Positions 3,732-47,636 of a stretch of 64,000 nucleotides of DNA are shown piece by piece. Within the stretch, counting starts at the first letter, position 1, and each line of letters begins with the position of its first letter. Both the position numbers and the translations under genes were made by a program. This DNA comes from Candidatus Vogelbacteria bacterium RIFOXYD1_FULL_44_32 (lineage in GTDB: Bacteria; Patescibacteriota; Minisyncoccia; Phycocordibacterales; XYD1-FULL-46-19). Location of the stretch: NCBI GenBank assembly GCA_001823065.1, contig MHTJ01000002.1, positions 53,532-117,531 on the forward strand, in the 5' to 3' direction. The notes beneath the pieces are model-generated. The model was not told where the DNA came from. It saw only the letters and a program-made list of their open reading frames with translations, and ran no database searches.

Positions 3732-3914
3732 AGCTGGAAATTAAGAACCAAAAAGCCCACCACAAGTGAGGCCAAATGGCCCTACCTAAGTTTCCCTAGG
3801 TAACGTTCCAGACGCCCTTGTGATGGGGTTTTTGTCTGGAACGCTTTGCGACCATACCGTAGAAAAGTAAATTTCTACGGGTTAGGTCTTAATAAATTGT
3901 TATCCTGATATTAA

Positions 3915-26843: not shown

Positions 26844-26873
26844 CTCGCCCCGAAACTAGGGGCGAGTTTTTTT
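26844..26873 (+). terminator. Rho-independent terminator
   Basis: ctcgcccc-gaaacta-ggggcgag followed by ttttttt. Confidence 0.7.
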
Positions 26874-26907
26874 GTGCGGGTAGGGAGAATCGGTCAGGAA
26901 TAATTTC
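26874..26907. repeat. 34-bp repeat A copy 1: the 3'-terminal ~20 nt of tRNA-Gly(UCC) plus 14 nt. Direct repeat of 27073-27092 and of 34970-35003
   Basis: gtgcgggtagggagaatcggtcaggaataatttc versus the tRNA 3' end gtgcgggtagggggaatcg, and versus 34970-35003 with one mismatch. Confidence 0.7.
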
Positions 26908-27072
26908 TCGCCGCCGCTCAAAATTTTCACGACCCTGGCTCATCTGTTTCTCTTGCTAGATAAACATGATTCCGCCTTTCGATTCCCCACGCAAGGTAAG
27001 CAGTTACCTTGCTCATCCCCGCCACTAGAGCCACAAAAATACCAGGCATAAACCTGGTATTTTTGTGGCCAG

Positions 27073-27143
27073 TGCGGGTAGGGGGAATCGAACTCCCGTC
27101 TGCACATTGGAAGTGTGCCATTCTACCACTAAACTATACCCGC
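27073..27143 (-). tRNA. tRNA-Gly(UCC)
   Basis: GCGGGTATAGTTTAGTGGTAGAATGGCACACTTCCAATGTGCAGACGGGAGTTCGATTCCCCCTACCCGCA. Cloverleaf with anticodon loop CTTCCAA; one A:C mismatch in the T-stem. Confidence 0.8.
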
Positions 27144-27147
27144 ATAT

Positions 27148-27813
27148 TTATCTAAGTACATTTTCTATCCAAGCATTAATCCTTCGGGCAAGATACACTC
27201 CAAATCTCTTGTCCCCATTACTCACTATACTAAGATGAGCTGTTCCAAAAGGCAACTTTCCTTTATTGAACTTTTTTTTATCCTTTCTTTGGTCAATTTG
27301 TATTTTTTGAAAATAATCTTTTTTAATTCCAAGCTCTTTTGACCAAAAATTAATCGCATCTACCACTTTATTGTCTGGATAGAGATGTAATCTAACCCTA
27401 AAATTAGAAATTGACAAGCCACATATTTCTTTAAACCATCTTACTGCTAATTTTATAATTTTTGGATCGGAATTAATAATCCTAACAGAATCATTTGTTT
27501 TTGCCCCCTCACCTAGATAAAGTCCAATACCCAACATAAATAAATCCCTTTTATTTAATACCCCAACATCTCTAATCGCCTCCTTTTTAGCAGCACTAAT
27601 AGATTCCAACTTTATTCTACGTTTAGCAAAATTTGAAGCCAGTCTCGCTTTTCCAATTTTATCTATGGTGTATTTATTAGGAGTATATGGAACATCCGAA
27701 AGCCAATAACTCAAAGTTCCCTTGGAAATATTCATTTTTTCATAAATATATCCATATGAGTATCCTTTCTTTCTCAATAAGACAGCTTCACTTTTGATTG
27801 ATTTCGAAATCAC
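27148..27813 (-). CDS. HTH-domain protein with a possible degenerate LAGLIDADG-like motif (LGIGLYLGEG), putative free-standing homing-endonuclease-like protein
   Basis: N-terminal HTH (KKGYSYGYIYEKMNISKGTLSYWL); central LGIGLYLGEGAKTND; starts 5 bp from the tRNA-Gly 5' end. Confidence 0.45.
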   Translation of the reverse strand: MISKSIKSEAVLLRKKGYSYGYIYEKMNISKGTLSYWLSDVPYTPNKYTIDKIGKARLASNFAKRRIKLESISAAKKEAIRDVGVLNKRDLFMLGIGLYLGEGAKTNDSVRIINSDPKIIKLAVRWFKEICGLSISNFRVRLHLYPDNKVVDAINFWSKELGIKKDYFQKIQIDQRKDKKKFNKGKLPFGTAHLSIVSNGDKRFGVYLARRINAWIENVLR

Positions 27814-27927
27814 ATATTAATCATAGCATATATGATATCACAGTTCAATTAAATTATCTTGACCACTTCAACCAAAGAAAAAGTGCCGGTTTATGGCCGG
27901 CACTTGGGAAACCACTATTTGAATTTT

Positions 27928-28341
27928 CTATCTCAATTGATGCGCCCCGAATATATTATGAGGCCCATATATATCATATTGATATACACATTTCAATTTC
28001 ACATTACCAGTCACCATATCACAATTAAATGTTCGAAATACCAACCCAGTATTAGCCGCCGCGACGAGCCACTCTCTTGGAGCCACAACATACACCACCT
28101 TAGACTCTTGAATAAAAACCTCAAGTTTCTTCAGAAAGTCATCAACGGTATCTGCCCAAAAGTTTTTATGGTGCTCAATATCTACTTCACCATCCAACCT
28201 GGCAATTACCAGCTTTTGCTCGGCGCTGAGATCGTGGCGTGAAAGCCATTTGACCTTCGGACCACATAATATTGTGGACCCTTGGTATCTGATTTTGGTT
28301 ATCTTAATTTCATCGGCAACCACAAAAACATCGCTACTCAT
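27928..28341 (-). CDS. hypothetical protein
   Basis: 137-aa ORF with no recognisable motif. Confidence 0.5.
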   Translation of the reverse strand: MSSDVFVVADEIKITKIRYQGSTILCGPKVKWLSRHDLSAEQKLVIARLDGEVDIEHHKNFWADTVDDFLKKLEVFIQESKVVYVVAPREWLVAAANTGLVFRTFNCDMVTGNVKLKCVYQYDIYGPHNIFGAHQLR

Positions 28342-28450
28342 TTATCATTACTCCTTGGGTGTTGGGTTTAGCGCGTTTACTAAACCATAAAAAGAACTTG
28401 GCTAGAAAAGAGTCTAGCAAATAATTCGTAAAAGTCAAAATCTACTTTGT

Positions 28451-28864
28451 TTAAACCGAGATTAGTCCGATAGTGGCAATAAGTATTATCACCGCCGACA
28501 AGGTAGGAATAATACACCAAGTGCAATTGTGTTTGAGAACGTGCAGTTGAATGTAAATAAGATACAGGGCATAAACACCCGCCAAAAGAGCAATAAGTAA
28601 AATTAAAATATTGAGGTAAAAACCACCACCGATAATTATATCAAGCAGGGTCAATAACGTCAGACTAGAAAAGTAAGCCAAGCCAATTTGGTCATTGGGT
28701 ATTCCCCACCACGAGCTGTGGCTACTGGAAATTATCCAGTCACAGTCAGAAGAAATGACGCACTCGATAGCTTGGCCATGTTTACGATGACGATAAACAT
28801 AATATGACGCCACCCAGCCAATAACCGTAACGACTAAAATTACTAACAAAAAAAGAATGGGCAT
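28451..28864 (-). CDS. vitamin K epoxide reductase (VKOR) family membrane protein
   Basis: Four TM helices, loop cysteine pair ECVISSDCDW, CxxC in TM4 (NCTWC). Confidence 0.65.
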   Translation of the reverse strand: MPILFLLVILVVTVIGWVASYYVYRHRKHGQAIECVISSDCDWIISSSHSSWWGIPNDQIGLAYFSSLTLLTLLDIIIGGGFYLNILILLIALLAGVYALYLIYIQLHVLKHNCTWCIIPTLSAVIILIATIGLISV

Positions 28865-28995
28865 CAGTCAATCATACCACGTTGTAAAATATGGTCTATA
28901 TTGCCAGTTGACTCTCCCCACTAAACCACTACAATGAAATTAGCGTAATCTTGGTCTCCCCCATCCCCCAACCTACCCGAAAGGAGGTGAGGTAA

Positions 28996-29286
28996 ATGAA
29001 CATTTCGACGCCAATTGATTTTGCGATTGTGCAAGAAGCAAAAAAGTTGGCCGGAGATTGGCCCCTGGAAGTCTCGCGCCAAGAAGAACTGGGAAATTTG
29101 ATACTCATCTTCACTTTTCCCCCAAACTTCACCAACTTCCAAGGCCAGTCATTGACCGTGGTGATTGAAGGAAACAAACCCCCTTCCTTTCATCCCACCA
29201 AATATTTTGAGCGGATCGCACACAACTTGACCCACAAATTTCACGGGCAGGACAAAACCAAAAAGCACGGCAACGGAAGGAGATAG
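28996..29286 (+). CDS. hypothetical protein
   Basis: Strong SD aaaggaggtgaggtaaATG; upstream TTGACT, 16-nt spacer, TACAAT promoter. Confidence 0.55.
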   Translation: MNISTPIDFAIVQEAKKLAGDWPLEVSRQEELGNLILIFTFPPNFTNFQGQSLTVVIEGNKPPSFHPTKYFERIAHNLTHKFHGQDKTKKHGNGRR

Positions 29287-29368
29287 TCCAATGACCAGGG
29301 GGATCCCAACCAAAAACTCGGTCGGTGTCGCATACGCCACTGCCACACCGCCGAGTTTTTACTTTTGT

Positions 29369-29408
29369 CCCAAACAAAAACCGCTCTTACGAGCGGTTTT
29401 TGTTTGGG
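29369..29408. terminator. bidirectional terminator
   Basis: cccaaacaaaaaccgctc-ttac-gagcggtttttgtttggg, an 18-bp stem. Confidence 0.75.
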
Positions 29409-29425
29409 AAAATCTTTAAAAAAGA

Positions 29426-29692
29426 TTAACGGCGAGGACGCTCTTCCATTGGACGAGCTTCGTTGACAGTCAAGTTGCGACCGCCAAAGTCTTTGCCATT
29501 CCACATTTCGATCGCTTTTTCAGCGTCGGAATCACTTTCGAATTCAACGAAACCAAAACCCTTTGAGCGGCCGGTCATCCGATCCATAATTATGGTTGCA
29601 GATGACACAACGCCAGCTTGTGAAAAAGTCTCTTTGAGTTCGTTGTCGGTAGTCGAGTAAGGTAGACCACCAACATACAATTTCTTAGCCAT
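29426..29692 (-). CDS. RNA-binding protein (RRM domain)
   Basis: RNP-2 LYVGGL and RNP-1 KGFGFVEF motifs. Confidence 0.85.
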   Translation of the reverse strand: MAKKLYVGGLPYSTTDNELKETFSQAGVVSSATIIMDRMTGRSKGFGFVEFESDSDAEKAIEMWNGKDFGGRNLTVNEARPMEERPRR

Positions 29693-29874
29693 GTGTGAAT
29701 ACTAGATTCTAATAACCGGCGAAGTAACGACCTCTCATACTGGTCTCTCTTTTGCTGTTTGTATCGCACACATGGAGAGAATACATTTTGAGGAAACTAC
29801 GCACACTGCCAGTATAGCAAAAATATAAAGAAAAGTCAATTAAAATGAGCGAGGTTTTCCTCGCTCATAGCAAA

Positions 29875-30393
29875 CTACGGCCGAGGTGGCGCCAAGGCAA
29901 GCGAAAGAGACTTGTTTTTAAACCTCTTATCACTTGTTACGTCGACCGCCAGCTTTGCCCAATCTGGCAGGGTAAAGTTATGAGCTTCCTCCTCTGTTTT
30001 GAACTCGCACTCAAGCACCACTAGTCCCGCCAAATAGCCAGTGTACTCGTCGAGCTCTAGCACAAGCTGACCAAATTTGAAAAAATACCGGTTCTTGTTG
30101 ACGGTCCTCCCCACAGCCAGCGGCCGAAGACTGTCGTAAATAACCCTCGGTAGTTCTACTTCAGTCTCTTGCCGAACCAGGCCCTCGCCTTTTTTGACAG
30201 TCAAAAAGTACTTCCGACCAGACCGACGAACCCGCGTCTCCCCCTCTTCTGCAGGTAGGTATGCCTGCTCGATAAAAAGGCACGGAACTTGGTTGTGGTC
30301 GACATAAACCACAAGTGGCGGCATTGTTGGCAACCAAAACTTCCGTTCAATTTCATAGCCGATAGGGTTACTCATCTCTCCCTCCCTTGTCAA
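29875..30393 (-). CDS. CYTH-domain protein (CyaB / thiamine-triphosphatase-like)
   Basis: EIERKF signature near the N-terminus; 172 aa. Confidence 0.8.
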   Translation of the reverse strand: MTREGEMSNPIGYEIERKFWLPTMPPLVVYVDHNQVPCLFIEQAYLPAEEGETRVRRSGRKYFLTVKKGEGLVRQETEVELPRVIYDSLRPLAVGRTVNKNRYFFKFGQLVLELDEYTGYLAGLVVLECEFKTEEEAHNFTLPDWAKLAVDVTSDKRFKNKSLSLALAPPRP

Positions 30394-30400
30394 AGACCCT

Positions 30401-30452
30401 CCGATTTCGCCGTTTTCGGCTCGTCAGCCCAAGCACCCACTTGGGGATCGGG
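30401..30452 (-). ncRNA. hammerhead ribozyme, type III topology (candidate)
   Basis: Minus-strand RNA cccgaUC^CCCAAG-UGGGUG-CUUGGG-CUGACGA-GCCG-AAAA-CGGC-GAAA-UCGG. All core nucleotides C3 U4 G5 A6 N7 G8 A9, G12 A13 A14, A15.1:U16.1, C17 and G10.1:C11.1 are present, with a 6-bp capped stem I, a 4-bp capped stem II and an open stem III. Confidence 0.6.
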
Positions 30453-30485
30453 AGCAGTTTAGTGACTTGCTCAGGTCATCTGCGC

Positions 30486-30596
30486 CTAGGCAGGGGTTCC
30501 TCCTTTCTCGCGAGCCATCGCCTCTTTAATATCCTTCTCGAGGCGCTCGAGGTAGCGGTCCACGTCTTCAGAGGTGCAGTCTTGCTTGCTGTTCAT
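30486..30596 (-). CDS. small ORF (36 aa, MNSKQDCTSEDVDRYLERLEKDIKEAMAREKGGTPA) upstream of the ribozyme
   Basis: ATG is preceded by AGAGGA at -8; ends 33 nt before the hammerhead core. Too short for the ORF track. Confidence 0.3.
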   Translation of the reverse strand: MNSKQDCTSEDVDRYLERLEKDIKEAMAREKGGTPA

Positions 30597-30765
30597 TTTA
30601 TTTCCTCTAGTTAAGGTCCAAGTTACTATCAAGATTCTGCCACTGTTTAAGTAAAGTGTCCTATATTATGACAATTTATATTTTTATATTTAAAAAAACC
30701 TTATTTATAGCCATTTTATACATATATTTGTTGACTTTTTTATCGACAATAGTATTATTTACGAA

Positions 30766-31515
30766 ATGATTATTGAAGATTACCTCCAAAAAATTGGCCT
30801 GACCGAAAAAGAAGCCAAACTCTATATTGCCGGTCTGCAAAATGGCCCCTCCACCATCCAAGAATTAGCCAATGAGTCGGGTTTAAAGAGAACAACAATT
30901 TACGAAATTGTAGACAGCCTAAAAGAGAAAAAACTAATCAATACCAGTCTACGCGAAAAGAAAAAGATTTTTATTATGGAAGAACCAGAAAACGTTGGTC
31001 TTTTTCTCAGACAACGCGAAAACATTTTTAACAAGATTTTGCCCGAGCTTGAAGCTTTGAAAAATATGGATACCAAAAAGCCAATGGCTCGCATTTATGA
31101 AGGTCGGGATGGTCTGGAAAAAATATATGAGGATATGATAAAAAAACCCGGCACAATCTTGGTCCTCGCAGCGCCCAAAGACCTCATCCTCCCTGGTCTT
31201 CTTGATTATCTAAAAAACGACTGGGAATTTCGGCGAATTAAAAACGGTATTGATATGCGCCGAGTAAATATAAATCTGACCGGCAACAAGCATATGGATT
31301 ATAAGATAAAACCAAATCCCGAAGAGTGTGAGAATATTAAATATCTACCGATAGACAACTACCCCTTTACCGTCGGTATTTATATTTATCGTAAAAAAGT
31401 TGCCTTCGTCTCATATCAGCACGAAGAAATGTTTGGCACTATTCTACGCAGTCCTGCCATCTGCCTCACTATGAAAGCTCTATTTGAAAACTTTTGGCAA
31501 ATGGATCGATCATAG
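30766..31515 (+). CDS. TrmB-family transcriptional regulator
   Basis: N-terminal winged HTH (LGLTEKEAKLYIAGLQNGPSTIQELANESGLKRTTIYEIVDSLKEKKLI). Confidence 0.75.
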   Translation: MIIEDYLQKIGLTEKEAKLYIAGLQNGPSTIQELANESGLKRTTIYEIVDSLKEKKLINTSLREKKKIFIMEEPENVGLFLRQRENIFNKILPELEALKNMDTKKPMARIYEGRDGLEKIYEDMIKKPGTILVLAAPKDLILPGLLDYLKNDWEFRRIKNGIDMRRVNINLTGNKHMDYKIKPNPEECENIKYLPIDNYPFTVGIYIYRKKVAFVSYQHEEMFGTILRSPAICLTMKALFENFWQMDRS

Positions 31516-31566
31516 CCTTTCATATAAAAACCGCCACTTCGAAAAATATCGAAGTGGCGGGTATTT

Positions 31567-32538
31567 CTATTTCCCCACGACCGACTGGTAGTAGCGAAAA
31601 TAGTCCATGGCCCGCGCGGTGTTGTGCTCTCTGGACGAACAATACTTCTCCGCATCCCAAGCGAAGTAAGATTGGTGGTAGGCGTCGGTCACATATCGAG
31701 CACATAGCTCAAGGGTAATAAGGGCGACCGCCTCGCGAATTTCGTCCCGCGTATAGGGCGGACGATATTCCGACCGGTAAGCCTCTACCACTTCCTCAAA
31801 CAATCGCGTGTCAAAGACAAAACCATCGCGTCGACACCAGCTCCGCAAGGAATCCCCTAGGTCAAGCAAGACACTGCCTCGCATTAAAGTGTCAAAATCA
31901 ACCAACGCCACCGCCCGTTGTCCGACAAACAAAAAGTTGTCAAACTTGGGATCGCCATGGATTAGCTGGCGGTCATTGGTTCTAGCGACAAGATGAAGCG
32001 AGGCACCGGCTTTGATCTTTTCGGCCAACTCGGCCAAATCGCCAGCAATACGATGAGTGGTGACCAACTCATACATCCGGCCAACAATCCCGGCCGTATC
32101 ATGAAAGCCGGTCAGGGTAAAGCAAGGTTCATAGCGACAATCAGCCATCAAGCGATGAAACCGCCCCATCATCATCGCCGCCGAAGACAAGGTGGCATAA
32201 TTCTTCTCCACCGCCTCATCGTGTTTAATATAACGAGTCGCTCGCCAATGATAGCCACCTAGAGTGAGAGACAAAGCGCCACTAGGAGCTATCATAGGCT
32301 CAGGCACCACGAAACCGCGGGCCGACAACCAACCAAAAAGAAACAGGCTATCAACCGTCACTCGCTCATCAAAAATATTGGCGAGCTTCTGGATAATGAC
32401 CGTCCCTTTTTCGGTCTCCACTTCGTAAGTCTTGTTGACGAACCCTCGGCCATTTATCACTTGCGACCGCACCTCGCCCAGCTTAAAAAAAGCCAGCACT
32501 TCGGCCAAGGTATTTTCCAAGGTCAAATTGTCATTCAT
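31567..32538 (-). CDS. phosphotransferase enzyme family (APH/ChoK-like kinase fold) protein
   Basis: LIHGDPKFDNFLF...LVDFD catalytic loop and DFD motif. Confidence 0.75.
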   Translation of the reverse strand: MNDNLTLENTLAEVLAFFKLGEVRSQVINGRGFVNKTYEVETEKGTVIIQKLANIFDERVTVDSLFLFGWLSARGFVVPEPMIAPSGALSLTLGGYHWRATRYIKHDEAVEKNYATLSSAAMMMGRFHRLMADCRYEPCFTLTGFHDTAGIVGRMYELVTTHRIAGDLAELAEKIKAGASLHLVARTNDRQLIHGDPKFDNFLFVGQRAVALVDFDTLMRGSVLLDLGDSLRSWCRRDGFVFDTRLFEEVVEAYRSEYRPPYTRDEIREAVALITLELCARYVTDAYHQSYFAWDAEKYCSSREHNTARAMDYFRYYQSVVGK

Positions 32539-32683
32539 CTGGTGTCCTCCAATGTTAAGACCAGTTCTACCTAATACAACTGAGTTTTTACTATATTTGT
32601 CCCTTTCTCTGGCTCGTGCTAGAAAGATAGGGCCAGATGCAACAAATGGACGACCTCGGTAGTTATATAAGAAAAGACTAAAT

Positions 32684-33253
32684 ATGTTTGACTTTACCCC
32701 CTACCAAAATCTAAGCGACGAGGAACTGCTAAAGCTATCCCTAAAGCATCCTAGTCTTTTTAATGTTTTGCTTAACCGCTACCAAGACAAGCTGTACCGG
32801 CGCGCTTTTTCGCTTTTACAAGAAGACGAGGAAGCCAAAGACGCCGTTCAAGAAACTTTTGTCAGTATTTACCTTCACGCTGGGCAGTTTCAAGCCAAAT
32901 CAACCGCTTCTTTTTCATCTTGGGCCTATGCCATAACAACCAACAAATGTTTTACTATCTACAAAAAAAAGCGTAATCAAAAGAACCGCACCGTTCCCCT
33001 ATCAACCGAGCTAGAAGCTTTACTCGCCAGCAAAGATGAAATGAGGGAACACAACCTCAAAGACTTGGCTTGCCACCTACTATCAATTATTCCCAAACCA
33101 ATGAGAAGAGTATTAACTCTCGTTAACGACGGCTATTCCTACGAAGAAATTGCCCTGCAAGAGAAAGTTTCTCCCTCAAGCATCCGCAGCCGCGTGCACC
33201 GAGCCCGCAAGATTTTAAACGATGTGGCTAAAGATTTAAAAGTATATATGTAA
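32684..33253 (+). CDS. RNA polymerase sigma-70 family factor (ECF-like)
   Basis: Region 2 (LYRRAFSLL...) and region 4 HTH (YSYEEIALQEKVSPSSIRSRVHRARKIL). Confidence 0.8.
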   Translation: MFDFTPYQNLSDEELLKLSLKHPSLFNVLLNRYQDKLYRRAFSLLQEDEEAKDAVQETFVSIYLHAGQFQAKSTASFSSWAYAITTNKCFTIYKKKRNQKNRTVPLSTELEALLASKDEMREHNLKDLACHLLSIIPKPMRRVLTLVNDGYSYEEIALQEKVSPSSIRSRVHRARKILNDVAKDLKVYM

Positions 33254-33260
33254 AATTATT

Positions 33261-33596
33261 ATGACTACCAACATTAAACTATCAAAAAAAATAATGCGCC
33301 GGATTTATGTTTTACATACCGCTCGTCTTTTATTGTCACCTATAGCAATAAAAATTTATGCCGTATTAATTTTCAGTAGTCTAATTAGCACCAAGGTTTC
33401 TATTTACGACGTGGTCGCTAATATGACCAATATTCATAGTGCTTATGATTTTTTAAATTTTTGGTTGTCCGCTTTAACCAATACCGAGACGATAATTCAA
33501 CTTGGGACAATAATTATAGCAACCACCTTCGTGTTTATATGTCGTGATATTTATCACAATTTACAACAACCAAATTTAGCTTTCCAAAAAAATTAG
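33261..33596 (+). CDS. membrane protein, putative anti-sigma factor
   Basis: Immediately downstream of the sigma factor; three predicted TM helices. Confidence 0.45.
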   Translation: MTTNIKLSKKIMRRIYVLHTARLLLSPIAIKIYAVLIFSSLISTKVSIYDVVANMTNIHSAYDFLNFWLSALTNTETIIQLGTIIIATTFVFICRDIYHNLQQPNLAFQKN

Positions 33597-33804
33597 ACCT
33601 CGACGCTTGGCACCGAGAATCGGTCACGAGTTACTAACTAAATTCATCACTACGTTCTTCATTTATATTTATTAAGTACTCTTGACCCCGCCTCGGCTGT
33701 CTCGCTACACTCGACATGCCTGCGGCCTTCGATTCCGGCCACAAGCCAAGTCCTAAAGCCGTCCGGCTCGAAGTAGGCCAGTTGACTTGCTCACACCTCC
33801 ATTC

Positions 33805-33820
33805 TGTCGGGGCGCCGAGA
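33805..33820. repeat. 16-bp direct repeat of the tRNA-Pro 3' end (tgtcggggcgccgaga); the second copy at 33950-33965 lies inside the tRNA
   Basis: Exact 16-nt match, 145 bp apart. Confidence 0.7.
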
Positions 33821-33829
33821 CGCTTCGCT

Positions 33830-33883
33830 ATCTCACACCTCGGAAACCCACGGTTTTCCGACGGGCTTCGCCCTGCCTTCCTC
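33830..33883. repeat. 54-bp repeat B copy 1 (atctcacacctcggaaacccacggttttccgacgggcttcgccctgccttcctc); copy 2 at 35019-35072
   Basis: 51/54 identical. Contains two small hairpins (ggaaaac-ccacg-gttttcc and gggc-ttc-gccc). Confidence 0.7.
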
Positions 33884-33951
33884 TGCGGAGAACTCCCGTT
33901 CCCCGACCCCCTCCCGTCCGATTCTTGGCTTCCTCAATTTACTTCGTAATG

Positions 33952-34022
33952 TCGGGGCGCCGAGAATCGAACTCGGACCGCTCGGTCCCAAACCGAGTAC
34001 ACTACCACTATGCTACGCCCCG
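33952..34022 (-). tRNA. tRNA-Pro(UGG)
   Basis: CGGGGCGTAGCATAGTGGTAGTGTACTCGGTTTGGGACCGAGCGGTCCGAGTTCGATTCTCGGCGCCCCGA; C1:G72 pair; anticodon loop TTTGGGA; the D-stem has G:U pairs. Confidence 0.8.
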
Positions 34023-34122
34023 CTGCCGTGGCCATAGCCACTCCAGCGTGGCAAAGGCCCGTTTCCAACTCCCCTATCCTAACAAAAAAACTAATCACTG
34101 TCATCATTTAGAAACTAGCTAG

Positions 34123-34506
34123 TCAAGAAATATCCTCGATGTATTCAATTTTAAGTAATTTTTGATTTTTATCCAGATATACTGCCACCGCATCTAATTG
34201 CCAATCCAGCTCTTCATATTGTTCATTGTTTAGTAAAAATGTCTCGATTGTCCGGTACAACCGCTTTAGCTTCCACGGGTGAATATTATCCTCTGGTTCA
34301 TAAGTGTCCCCTGTTTCATGTAAAACACCTGCCCTAGTAACTGTTTTTACCTCAACAAAGTGTACCACCTCCCCTTTTTGGGTAATAATATCAATTTCAC
34401 CCCATGGTTTACGATAATTGCGAGCAATAATAGCAAAACCCTTGGTTTTTAGGTGCTTTACCGCTAGATCCTCCCCTATTTGACCAACCTTATGTTTGAG
34501 TAACAT
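34123..34506 (-). CDS. YraN/UPF0102 family PD-(D/E)xK endonuclease
   Basis: GEIDIITQKGEVVHFVEVKT signature; 127 aa. Confidence 0.8.
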   Translation of the reverse strand: MLLKHKVGQIGEDLAVKHLKTKGFAIIARNYRKPWGEIDIITQKGEVVHFVEVKTVTRAGVLHETGDTYEPEDNIHPWKLKRLYRTIETFLLNNEQYEELDWQLDAVAVYLDKNQKLLKIEYIEDIS

Positions 34507-34577
34507 TTTATTAAATTACAATAGTTCGAAGGCCAAATATAACAAAATTCTAGCAAATTTGACTCAAACACCCAAAA

Positions 34578-34706
34578 TTGTTTCCCGTGAAATGCTTTTT
34601 ATGTTTTTTAAGTCTAAAACCCTATAATTACCTCTCCTTTCATAACTACCCATTTCACGGGAAACACCCCCTACCTAACGTTACTTAAGTAACGTTAGGT
34701 AGGGGG
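34578..34706. promoter_or_regulatory. structured non-coding element: 15-bp inverted repeat gtttcccgtgaaat (34580-34594 and 34651-34665 inverted; third direct copy at 34933-34946) immediately followed by a 40-bp perfect palindrome (34667-34706)
   Basis: ccccctacctaacgttac ttaa gtaacgttaggtaggggg, 18-bp arms with no T-tract after; gccatttatt direct repeats at 34778-34830. Confidence 0.5.
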
Positions 34707-34969
34707 AAGAGATAGTTTTTAAGGATTAAAGCCATTTTTAGCCAAAAACCCTTTATTTAGGCCATTTATTCGGACATACTTATATTTATAGCCATTTATT
34801 TGGGACTGAAAAGGTCGTCTTTTATCCCCACCGTCCCCAACTTTATCCCCGTTTTTGACCAAAAATGGCCTAAAATATAACAATTTATGAGACCAGGTAT
34901 TGACTGGCCTTGTCTGTCGTTTTACTAAATCTGTTTCCCGTGAAATAGGGGATTGATCGAACTTAATTT

Positions 34970-35003
34970 GTGCGGATAGGGAGAATCGGTCAGGAATAAT
35001 TTC
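34970..35003. repeat. 34-bp repeat A copy 2
   Basis: gtgcggatagggagaatcggtcaggaataatttc, 33/34 identical to 26874-26907. Confidence 0.7.
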
Positions 35004-35018
35004 AAAGAGCAAGGAGAG

Positions 35019-35072
35019 ATCTCACTCCTCGAAAACCCACGGTTTTCCGACGGGCTTCGCCCTGCCTTCCTC
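35019..35072. repeat. 54-bp repeat B copy 2
   Basis: See copy 1 at 33830-33883. Confidence 0.7.
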
Positions 35073-35175
35073 CACGGAAACCTACCGGTTTCCGACCCTT
35101 CCCCGTTCTATTCTCCTTGCCCGCACGCCAAACAAAAACGCACCCCAAGGTGCGTTTTTGTTTGGCCAAATTCTG

Positions 35176-35246
35176 TGCGGGCAAGGAGAATCGAACTCCT
35201 GTCTCGTCCTTGGCAAGGACGTGTTCTACCACTAAACCATGCCCGC
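35176..35246 (-). tRNA. tRNA-Gly(GCC)
   Basis: GCGGGCATGGTTTAGTGGTAGAACACGTCCTTGCCAAGGACGAGACAGGAGTTCGATTCTCCTTGCCCGCA, a good cloverleaf. Followed by a gccaaacaaaaacgcacc-ccaa-ggtgcgtttttgtttggc terminator hairpin and an inverted copy of its own 3' end (35108-35123). Confidence 0.85.
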
Positions 35247-37277: not shown

Positions 37278-37400
37278 CTGCTTGGTTCCTTGATTTCCAA
37301 ACCAACTTTCGCAAAAGCTTAAAAAAGCGAGGGTTCGCTCAATATAGGGAAGCAAGGCTCGGCGAAAAACATTTTCTCGCTCTTATTAAATAATACTTCC

Positions 37401-38309
37401 TCAAGTATTTTTCTTCCCATGGAATTTTTTATGGATGTCGCGAAGCTGGCGGTCAGTAATATGGGTATAGATTTGGGTCGTGGCAATATTGGAGTGGCCG
37501 AGCATTACTTGGACCGAGCGAATATCGGCCCCATTTTGTAAAAGGTCGGTAGCAAAGCTGTGGCGAATCACATGCGGGGTGACTTTGCCCGTAATACCGG
37601 CCTTCACCGCATACTGTTTTACAATTCTTTCAATACTACGAGTGGTGAGCCGAGTTGGGGCGTCGCCTTTTTTAGCCAGACTAACAAACAGCGCTTCCTC
37701 GACATCACCACGTTTGTGTAAATAAGCCTTTAGCGCATCTTTGGCATCATCCGACAAAAAAACTAGTCGCACTTTTTCTCCTTTACCACGAACAGTAAAC
37801 TCATCGCGGGCCAAATCAAATGAATCACGGTTTAGACCGGCGAGCTCCGACACCCGCAGACCAGTAGAAAAGAATAACTCGAGAAAAGCCCGATCCCGTA
37901 AAGACATTTCGCTACCACCCTCGGGGGCCTGCAACAGGCGAGTGAGCTCGGCGCTGGAAATAAGCTCGAGCTCGCGACCACCAGTTTTGGCCAGTTCTAT
38001 CCGCTCGGGGGCCAAGGATTTGACTCCCCGTCGGGCTAAATATTTGAGGAAAGTCCGCAAGGCAATAAGATAGTAGTTTTGCGTATTTTTCTTGAGGGTA
38101 CCAGCAGGGGAGGGTTGGCGGTTTAGCCAGAGGCGAAATTCACGCAAAACCTCGTCGGTAATACCCGAAGCGGTCGTGACCTTGGTTTGTTTTAAAAAAC
38201 GGGTTAAATAGCGGTCGTAGTTTTCAACCGTTTTTAGACTGCGACCTTTTTCAATCTCGATATATTCGAGAAATTGGCGTTTTAAAGTGTCGATTTCGGT
38301 GGTGGACAT
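37401..38309 (-). CDS. xerC: tyrosine recombinase XerC/XerD family
   Basis: N-terminal core-binding domain; C-terminal R...HxxR...Y catalytic motifs (HVIRHSFATDLLQNGADIRSVQVMLGHSNIATTQIYTHI). Confidence 0.85.
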   Translation of the reverse strand: MSTTEIDTLKRQFLEYIEIEKGRSLKTVENYDRYLTRFLKQTKVTTASGITDEVLREFRLWLNRQPSPAGTLKKNTQNYYLIALRTFLKYLARRGVKSLAPERIELAKTGGRELELISSAELTRLLQAPEGGSEMSLRDRAFLELFFSTGLRVSELAGLNRDSFDLARDEFTVRGKGEKVRLVFLSDDAKDALKAYLHKRGDVEEALFVSLAKKGDAPTRLTTRSIERIVKQYAVKAGITGKVTPHVIRHSFATDLLQNGADIRSVQVMLGHSNIATTQIYTHITDRQLRDIHKKFHGKKNT

Positions 38310-47328: not shown

Positions 47329-47636
47329 TTCCCAACCCAGCGAACCCTCCTTTTTTTTGATTGTTGTGAAAGAAGTGACCTGTTTCCGCAACCGAGCGAG
47401 CCTAGTTCTGTTCCAAAACCTTGCGGAGGTGTCGGCCCGCCCGCCATCGCAAGCTCAGGCGTTGCGGGCGGGCCGGCAGGGTTTTGGCCTTGGGTATTTA
47501 CTCCAGCAGGAGCTAGGAAATGTTTTTCGCCGAGCCTTGCGCAAGGGCGACGGCCCGAGCAGAGCAAATTTTCAGCAGAAAATTATGTGTGCTCGCCGAA
47601 AAACATTTCCGAGCGACCTTATCCACAGGTAGATTG

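Follow-up and report, generated by a model that had tools for sequence, protein, structure and literature searches.

Genomic islands and prophages that occupy transfer RNA (tRNA) and transfer-messenger RNA (tmRNA) genes are inserted by tyrosine integrases, some of which cross over in the T-loop, as set out in a published classification of integration sublocations. Elements that depend on a helper exist as well, and the tycheposon satellites at tRNA genes of Prochlorococcus are reportedly non-autonomous integrative elements. Patescibacteria, whose genomes are tiny, are considered poor in mobile elements. Here we describe two families of small units, T1 and T2, that adjoin tRNA genes in a stretch of 64,000 nucleotides (nt) from Candidatus Vogelbacteria bacterium RIFOXYD1_FULL_44_32 (contig MHTJ01000002.1, positions 53,532 to 117,531 of the forward strand; hereafter the window, whose own numbering we use). 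We read them, with a probability of about 0.6, as protein-less miniature integrative cassettes that would enter genes by a Campbell-type crossover, supply a replacement for the gene end that they displace, and rely on an enzyme acting in trans. The likeness to islands that integrate at tRNA and tmRNA genes is extensive: insertion within the gene, an apparent crossover in the T-loop, a replacement 3' end, a displaced direct repeat, arrays, and tmRNA as a target. Unlike those islands, the units are 130-250 bp long and lack the integrase that membership of that class would call for, or any other protein; they pair one core with many targets, including the ends of protein genes, and they carry an extra, inverted copy of the target. 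Cis-mobilizable elements and tycheposon satellites share with them att (attachment) repeats at tRNA genes, the lack of a recombinase of their own, tandem arrays with relatives and dependence on a helper, but those elements are kilobases long and have a known autonomous parent in the same genomes, whereas no parent was found for the units described here, whose conserved part is a structured core of about 83 nt. The insertion geometry is shared with the islands, and gene-less cassettes of this kind, widespread in Patescibacteria, have apparently gone undescribed; our search of the searchable literature found no description of them.

The T1 family is defined by its core. A sequence that we call repeat B, present at 33830-33883 and again at 35019-35072, is the centre of this conserved, GC-rich core of about 83 nt with three hairpins. 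A preliminary description of the window had reported the pair as identical at 51 of 54 positions; the repeat is real and the count is 52 of 54, with two differences. None of 100 shuffles reproduces the match, and the likeness extends to 96 nt at 84% identity. T1 occurs at about 30 loci (given L numbers here) in Saccharibacteria, Parcubacteria/Paceibacteria, Yonathbacteria and Minisyncoccia. A pattern of 26 nt taken from repeat B matched 14 species-representative genomes (Saccharibacteria, Parcubacteria, Yonathbacteria, Minisyncoccia and other Patescibacteria), and a related pattern gave matches on 17 metagenome contigs. The window genome stems from groundwater at Rifle, and L021, L025 and L035 stem from groundwater at Hainich. 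At nearly all loci the pattern is met on the strand opposite a tRNA or tmRNA gene, 35-80 nt downstream of it. Read along the strand of the pattern, a direct copy of the gene end comes first and the core second; then comes a copy of the target that is inverted and straddles the breakpoint, and after it a spacer that is not conserved and the intact target. Everything from fragment to target is contained in 130-250 bp and laid out in the same way at nearly every locus. The spacer is usually a terminator made of an A-tract, a stem and a T-tract, often one that works in both directions.

The targets of T1 are diverse. They include the 3' ends of at least nine tRNA species (for Gly, Pro, Arg, Leu, Met, Ala, His and Glu), of tmRNA in five lineages and of rpmG in two, as well as the 5' ends of a murD-like gene in three lineages and of a typA/lepA-like GTPase gene. 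Among tRNA and tmRNA genes 14 targets were examined, and in 12 of them an exact direct repeat of 15-20 nt stops where T-stem meets T-loop, placing the left breakpoint there; over all targets the direct repeats range from 15 to 55 nt, the longest being in L026. The inverted repeats vary from locus to locus, each copying its local target, and are near-perfect in young units, with the acceptor part decayed in old ones.

Against this variety of targets the core itself is constant, with a mean identity of 94% outside the variable part of hairpin P4 and a G+C content of 58%, compared with 44% for the window. Copies at tRNA and tmRNA genes begin with a left extension, in which GACGC and a variable hairpin (P1) precede TATCTCAC; the core proper has hairpins P2, P3 and P4, pyrimidine-rich linkers and a terminal ACCCC(T/C)TTCC. 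The preliminary description had noted that repeat B folds into two short hairpins and could be a small RNA, and compensatory changes now back the hairpins of the core. Five pairs of P4 change in a compensatory manner, 96.6% of its cells are paired, shifted registers collapse, and the covariation score is reached by 0 of 500 shuffles. Compensatory variants of P2 occur in divergent copies, and of P3 in L020. Inserted hairpins are tolerated in P1 and in the loop of P2 (L018, L019, L035), and a subtype of T1 without P3 is found in L033 and L047 next to tRNA-Pro and in L036 next to tRNA-Gly. An attempt to assign the strand from G-U pairs in P2 was abandoned, as an alternative, bulged register is neutral with respect to strand.

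The window holds four units: a T2 at tRNA-Gly(UCC), a T2 and a T1 at tRNA-Pro, and a T1, with a remnant of a T2, at tRNA-Gly(GCC). Their parts are as follows, scores being those of covariance model R1 and the slash in the T2 junction marking the break.

26874-26892, minus strand: displaced tRNA-Gly 3' fragment (X), beside the host's native terminator and T-run, with the left junction GAATCG/GTCA of T2; at the empty sites of L035 and L036 the same terminator abuts the tRNA.
26893-27030, plus strand: T2 body at tRNA-Gly(UCC), starting with GTCAGGAAT, then a variable hairpin, a CACGACCCTGG motif, an inverted copy of the T-loop and T-stem (TTTCGATTCCCC) and a second hairpin.
27031-27068, no strand: terminator hairpin carried by T2, then a 3-nt trailer and the replacement tRNA end; the same terminator family accompanies T2 at different tRNAs and in different genomes.
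27072-27143, minus strand: tRNA-Gly(UCC), the target of T2.
33606-33622, minus strand: degenerate displaced tRNA-Pro 3' fragment (cttGGCaCCGAGAATCG), outermost in the tRNA-Pro array.
33623-33804, plus strand: T2 unit at tRNA-Pro (GTCACGAGTTACTAA ... CACCTCCATTC), with an inverted T-loop copy and a hairpin spacer.
33805-33820, minus strand: exact 16-nt copy of the tRNA-Pro 3' end, the boundary between T2 and T1.
33821-33915, plus strand: T1 left extension (CGCTTCGCTATCTCAC, mini-hairpin P1) and core with P2, P3, P4 and the pyrimidine tail, containing repeat B (91 bits).
33916-33949, plus strand: inverted copy, now decayed, of the T-loop and 3' end of tRNA-Pro (GTCCGATTCTTGGC...) and a spacer without a terminator; a homologous spacer is present in L033 and L035.
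33951-34022, minus strand: tRNA-Pro(UGG), the target of the stacked T2 and T1.
34967-35003, minus strand: repeat A, made up of an older tRNA-Gly 3' end, the host trailer (taattt) and the first 15 nt of a T2, the rest of which is deleted; the empty site of L035 has the same flank.
35009-35104, plus strand: what is left of the present tRNA-Gly(GCC) end (GCAAGGAGAG), fused to a TATCTCAC-subtype T1 core, containing the second repeat B (94.5 bits).
35105-35126, plus strand: inverted copy of the T-loop, T-stem and acceptor 3' strand of tRNA-Gly(GCC), matching at 21 of 22 positions.
35128-35165, no strand: two-way terminator hairpin, which separates the inverted copy from the tRNA and forms the middle of the palindrome.
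35175-35246, minus strand: tRNA-Gly(GCC), the target of the T2 remnant and T1.

The recurrent architecture of tRNA and repeats that the preliminary description saw at tRNA-Pro and tRNA-Gly(GCC) is real, and its tRNA coordinates and anticodons are correct. The 16 nt at 33805-33820 that copy the 3' end of tRNA-Pro agree at every position with 33950-33965, and the short recurring motif, ATCGGTCA(C/G)GA, is present at 26889, 33619 and 34985, three occurrences where 0.06 would be expected. Repeat A had been taken for the 3' end of tRNA-Gly(UCC). It does match that end at 17 of 19 positions, but as a whole it is a displaced tRNA end together with the left end of a T2. Its closest twin (36 of 37 positions) lies at 26871-26907, about 165 nt downstream of tRNA-Gly(UCC), and so reveals a third locus with the same architecture outside the region described earlier. 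The inverted copy of the tRNA-Gly(GCC) 3' end at 35105-35126 had been overlooked; together, this copy, the terminator and the tRNA end make a palindrome of 92 nt whose fold as single-stranded DNA has a predicted energy of -46 kcal/mol (z = -14).

T2 has the same layout as T1 and is marked by the junction GAATCG/GTCA(C/G)GA. It has its own body, an internal inverted copy of the T-loop, covarying hairpins and its own terminator, and was found at Gly and Pro tRNAs of Vogelbacteria relatives, with the junction motif also present in L004 and L028. Units homologous to the T2 body at tRNA-Gly(UCC) sit at Gly tRNAs in L033 and L037/L038, and the junction motif, present downstream of tRNA-Gly(GCC) in L048, marks a putative unit there. 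A homologue of the T2 unit at tRNA-Pro directly adjoins the tRNA in L033 and L036, the reverse of the order in the window. L037 carries near-identical T2 units at both of its Gly tRNAs, each flanked by the end sequence of its own tRNA. A further place where the motif turns up is the reverse strand of L017 at about 440-470: this contig and L029 (9100-9120) are 97% identical and diverge exactly at the 3' end of tRNA-Tyr, and L017, which lacks the tRNA-Tyr, reads GAATCGGTCA, the T2 junction motif, at the break. We considered the two as a filled and an empty site at tRNA-Tyr and rejected the pair as an ambiguous rearrangement.

How the units come and go is best seen among close relatives. Syntenic loci were obtained through homologues of the neighbouring CCA-adding enzyme, and nine relatives share synteny with the window. 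Empty sites were found at tRNA-Gly(GCC) in L035 and at tRNA-Gly(UCC) in L035 and L036, where host flank, terminator and trailer abut an intact tRNA; at filled sites the same host flank abuts the outermost fragment instead. The comparison of flanks places the breakpoint inside the gene, after the 3' strand of the T-stem for T1 and within the T-loop for T2. The working 3' end and its new terminator are supplied by the unit. The terminator of T2 is conserved from one Gly tRNA to another and across genomes, and the T1 spacer at tRNA-Pro is common to the window, L033 and L035. Two loci with displaced 5' ends of protein genes fit a foreign origin of the working end: in L016 the displaced and working copies differ by synonymous changes only (6 in 9 codons), and in L026 the displaced end codes for a different N-terminus, which suggests that the two ends stem from different orthologues. 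An A-C mismatch in the T-stem of tRNA-Gly(UCC), which we had regarded as proof of a foreign 3' end, was withdrawn, as the same mismatch is present at the empty site of L036.

Across the nine syntenic relatives the units are patchy: at one and the same tRNA a unit may be present, may have decayed, may survive as a stub or may be missing. The preliminary description had considered that repeat B might prove to be an invariant 3' trailer in all relatives; what close relatives have at these tRNAs is instead present, absent, decayed or reordered. The order of units changes too: the window has T2 and then T1, but in L033 and L036 the homologous units stand as T1 and then T2, for tRNA-Pro as well as for tRNA-Gly(GCC). 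Other Pro isoacceptors carry units in L047 and L049, and L028 has a tandem array at the end of a contig. Many contigs stop at a unit, including one in a second assembly of the window genome, and L014, L016, L021, L024, L027, L028 and L032 end within about 200 nt of one. Comparative data of this kind bear out the earlier suggestion of tRNA-targeting mini-elements with a common arm. Its companion suggestion, that the repeats are att remnants, fares worse, as the units are complete small elements and no leftovers of large islands; they also fall into two families, and each has an inverted copy of its target and a replacement tRNA end.

Gene content in the vicinity of the units is variable as well. 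The interval between tRNA-Gly(UCC) and tRNA-Pro (27144-33605) differs from the syntenic stretch of every relative (L033, L035-L037, L047-L050), with genes for an ECF sigma factor, an APH-type kinase, TrmB and a CYTH protein in the window, a DNA methyltransferase gene in L035 and a CorA gene in L033 and L036. It is a hotspot of gene flux bounded by tRNA arrays. In L001 a T1 core without a neighbouring tRNA is followed downstream by two defence-like open reading frames (719-2110); cargo could conceivably separate core from target there.

We envisage a cassette made of a structured core, a short inverted copy of the target round the breakpoint, a spacer and a replacement gene end. The spacer would usually be a terminator or, for targets at 5' ends, carry a new start region; the replacement end for a tRNA would consist of the last 15-20 nt, from the 3' strand of the T-stem to the discriminator, plus a few bases of trailer. 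Entry would be by a reciprocal, Campbell-type crossover, at the boundary of T-stem and T-loop for T1 and inside the T-loop for T2, and would yield a working gene whose 5' part is the host's and whose 3' part is the cassette's. The gene end that the host had before, still followed by its terminator, would be pushed outward as a dead fragment, and repeated events would build the stacked arrays. The recombination activity, we infer, comes from elsewhere in the cell, and might be a site-specific recombinase or homologous recombination acting on DNA that has been taken up. Several observations weigh against this account. No recombinase, excised circle or empty-site read was observed, the indirect signs of excision being the empty sites of relatives and the tandem array at the contig end of L028. 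A plain integrase or Campbell model does not require the inverted copy of the target, and a single core serves many targets that are unrelated to one another, a versatility not known from ordinary integrases. Two cores, in L020 and L030, abut tRNA 3' ends on the same strand and without repeats, and do not fit the model. In L028 a T2 and a T1 have an identical spacer, which could mean that a spacer was duplicated locally. Finally, L005 and L021, from strains that are 99% identical, differ only in the spacer between core and tmRNA, which suggests homologous exchange rather than site-specific insertion.

Could homologous exchange explain everything? The units would then spread only by DNA uptake and homologous recombination, with the duplicated end as left arm and the conserved gene as right arm, and neither a dedicated recombinase nor a site-specific step would be involved. 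The targets are indeed among the most conserved DNA (tRNA, tmRNA, rpmG, the G1 region of the GTPase, the Rossmann motif of murD), direct repeats can be as long as the 55 nt of L026, displaced and working gene ends resemble different orthologues, and a swapped spacer between core and tmRNA is all that separates L005 from L021. However, the left arms at tRNA genes are only 15-20 nt, which is short for RecA-mediated recombination, and the fixed breakpoint at the T-stem/T-loop boundary in 12 of 14 targets points to a position-specific event when a new target is acquired. Exchange between homologues also accounts for neither the inverted copy nor the origin of new targets. As the sole process we consider it unlikely; for the spread of units between strains, homologous exchange after uptake is a serious alternative. 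Very unlikely, in our estimate, is the view that the repeats are decayed att leftovers of large integrase-bearing islands, their shared arm being the part of attP nearest the integration site. Direct repeats of tRNA 3' ends and stacked fragments are the classic scars of islands; the varying gene content between tRNA-Gly(UCC) and tRNA-Pro among relatives and the defence-like genes after the core in L001 would also suit it. But all parts lie within 130-250 bp in one layout at nearly every locus, no integrase or other shared protein is nearby, and neutral decay would not keep a core 94% identical across classes. The same deletion of P3 at different tRNAs is a further difficulty, for it indicates that the short form itself spreads.

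The least probable of these explanations, to our minds, is that repeat B is an immobile, vertically inherited small RNA or a processing or terminator signal of tRNA transcription units. A GC-rich core (58% against 44%) with hairpins backed by compensatory changes, two-way terminators between core and tRNA, and the core of L020 that directly follows a tRNA on the same strand are all what one might expect of such a signal. It is hard to reconcile with presence, absence and order that vary among close relatives, with several decayed copies, or with a core that faces a 3' end at one set of genes and a 5' end at another, such that its strand relative to the transcription of the target flips. The element may still give rise to an RNA, though then as a mobile unit.

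If the cassettes do move, they may do so in a folded, single-stranded form, which the target-matching inverted repeat suggests, as does a second, mirror-like regularity within T1. The purine strand of P4 and the 3' tail of the core change together, in parallel register, with mutual information of 0.48 and 0.68 at the two most variable positions. Mirror matches number 132 of 175, a value reached by 0 of 20,000 column shuffles, though kinship among the sequences could inflate the statistic; L049 provides an independent example, in which GGGAGGA is paired with CCCACCT. A purine strand, a loop, a pyrimidine strand, a short turn and a mirror pyrimidine strand follow one another as they would in a single strand folded into an intramolecular triple helix, and we regard the covariation as suggestive only of such a structure. 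By a small margin the base rules favour an antiparallel, purine-type triplex on the strand in the sense of the tRNA, which at the most variable position scores 22 of 25 as against 18 of 25. Triplexes of that type are known for DNA rather than RNA, and this fit would point to a single-stranded DNA intermediate. Palindrome and mirror covariation together hint at a folded single-stranded intermediate of one kind or the other. One might go further and propose that the folded core, as RNA or DNA and with the triple helix as part of it, is itself a recombination module, re-programmable to any conserved gene end and served by an enzyme in trans, in which the flanking segments derived from the target set the site of integration; the site-specifying segments would be the left direct copy and the right inverted copy, the latter spanning the breakpoint. 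We think this unlikely.

Several known systems offer parallels to such behaviour. The attC sites of integrons and the attP hairpin of CTX phage, which is used by XerCD, are attachment sites that fold from a single strand. Like them, the units here are small, lack a recombinase, form arrays and combine conserved structure with variable loops, and through their imperfect inverted repeat a single strand could fold back on itself to give a double-stranded copy of the recombination site. Unlike them, no IntI or dif-type system was identified here, and the stem copies the target gene. The T-loop GTTCGAT agrees by eye with the integron core site GTTRRRY (R box) at six of seven positions, and a comparison of flanking proteins found no IntI gene in any locus. 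Bridge RNAs of IS110 elements resemble the units in that a structured non-coding segment matches both strands of the target round the crossover, and in that the choice of target appears re-programmable. They differ in being located inside an element that encodes its recombinase, with guides of 4-7 nt in internal loops; the units have no protein gene inside or consistently beside them, and an RNA is no more than a candidate. Miniature inverted-repeat transposable elements (MITEs), repetitive extragenic palindromic (REP) and Correia sequences and the palindromic derivatives of IS200/IS605 are likewise small, non-coding, structured, present in multiple copies and prone to break assemblies. The terminal repeats of MITEs, though, belong to the element and their target duplications measure 2-10 bp, neither of which is true here: the direct (15-55 nt) and inverted repeats copy the target gene, and an essential gene is preserved.

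Units of 130-250 bp encode no protein, and a coding role for the core was rejected, as loop insertions and deletions are not multiples of three (among them a 31-nt insertion in L019 and L035). Our comparison of the proteins in the flanks of the loci found none in common, the clusters obtained being spurious frames over the GC-rich core and synteny among close relatives. No integrase was found near the elements apart from a syntenic, housekeeping XerD-like gene (37401-38309), which is uninformative as a candidate for the mobilising enzyme since it is syntenic with or without units. The XerD-like region is flanked by several inverted repeats of 29-34 nt, 76-94% complementary and about 10 kb apart (37306-37382 and 47339-47540). 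A BLAST search of the T1 unit against phages and plasmids gave no match, and neither did two core patterns in viral contigs; a third pattern gave eight matches in viral contigs that are not the element, sharing only a P2-like hairpin (16-20 bits). A scan with Rfam covariance models found no match at the cores, at the gathering threshold or at E <= 10, and the matches to microRNA families merely reflect the long palindrome. Elsewhere in the window, the LOOT RNA (RF03000) is found at 3769-3888 on the minus strand, with 71.8 bits against a gathering score of 46.4.

Two further features of the window deserve mention. An open reading frame of 221 amino acids (27148-27813, minus strand), with an N-terminal helix-turn-helix and a weak match to the LAGLIDADG region of I-DmoI (E = 0.07), ends 5 nt from the 5' end of tRNA-Gly(UCC), and a 32%-identical homologue (L035, 6499-7185, minus strand) overlaps the 5' end of tRNA-Gly(GCC). 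The reading frame may be a free-standing gene of the homing-endonuclease type that settles at the 5' ends of tRNA genes. The non-coding stretch 34507-34966, upstream of a YraN/UPF0102 gene, holds three copies of GTTTCCCGTGAAAT (34580 plus, 34652 minus, 34933 plus) and a 40-nt palindrome (34667-34706), which in contig L032, identical to this stretch, matches itself at 100% on the other strand. Around the YraN gene of L020 there are related TTTCACGTGAAAC repeats.

Having found these units, the next question is what they mean for their hosts. On the practical side, they break assemblies, create artefacts in the form of tRNA fragments, and mark hotspots of gene flux. The mirror-repeat signal, if true, would represent a rare natural intramolecular triplex in bacteria. 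The conserved core offers a handle for hunting the enzyme by co-occurrence, and that enzyme might be re-targetable. A protein-less cassette that invades the ends of essential genes and leaves them unbroken, that is about 94% identical across classes and that accumulates in arrays would point to a route of recombination in Patescibacteria that has so far not been recognised.

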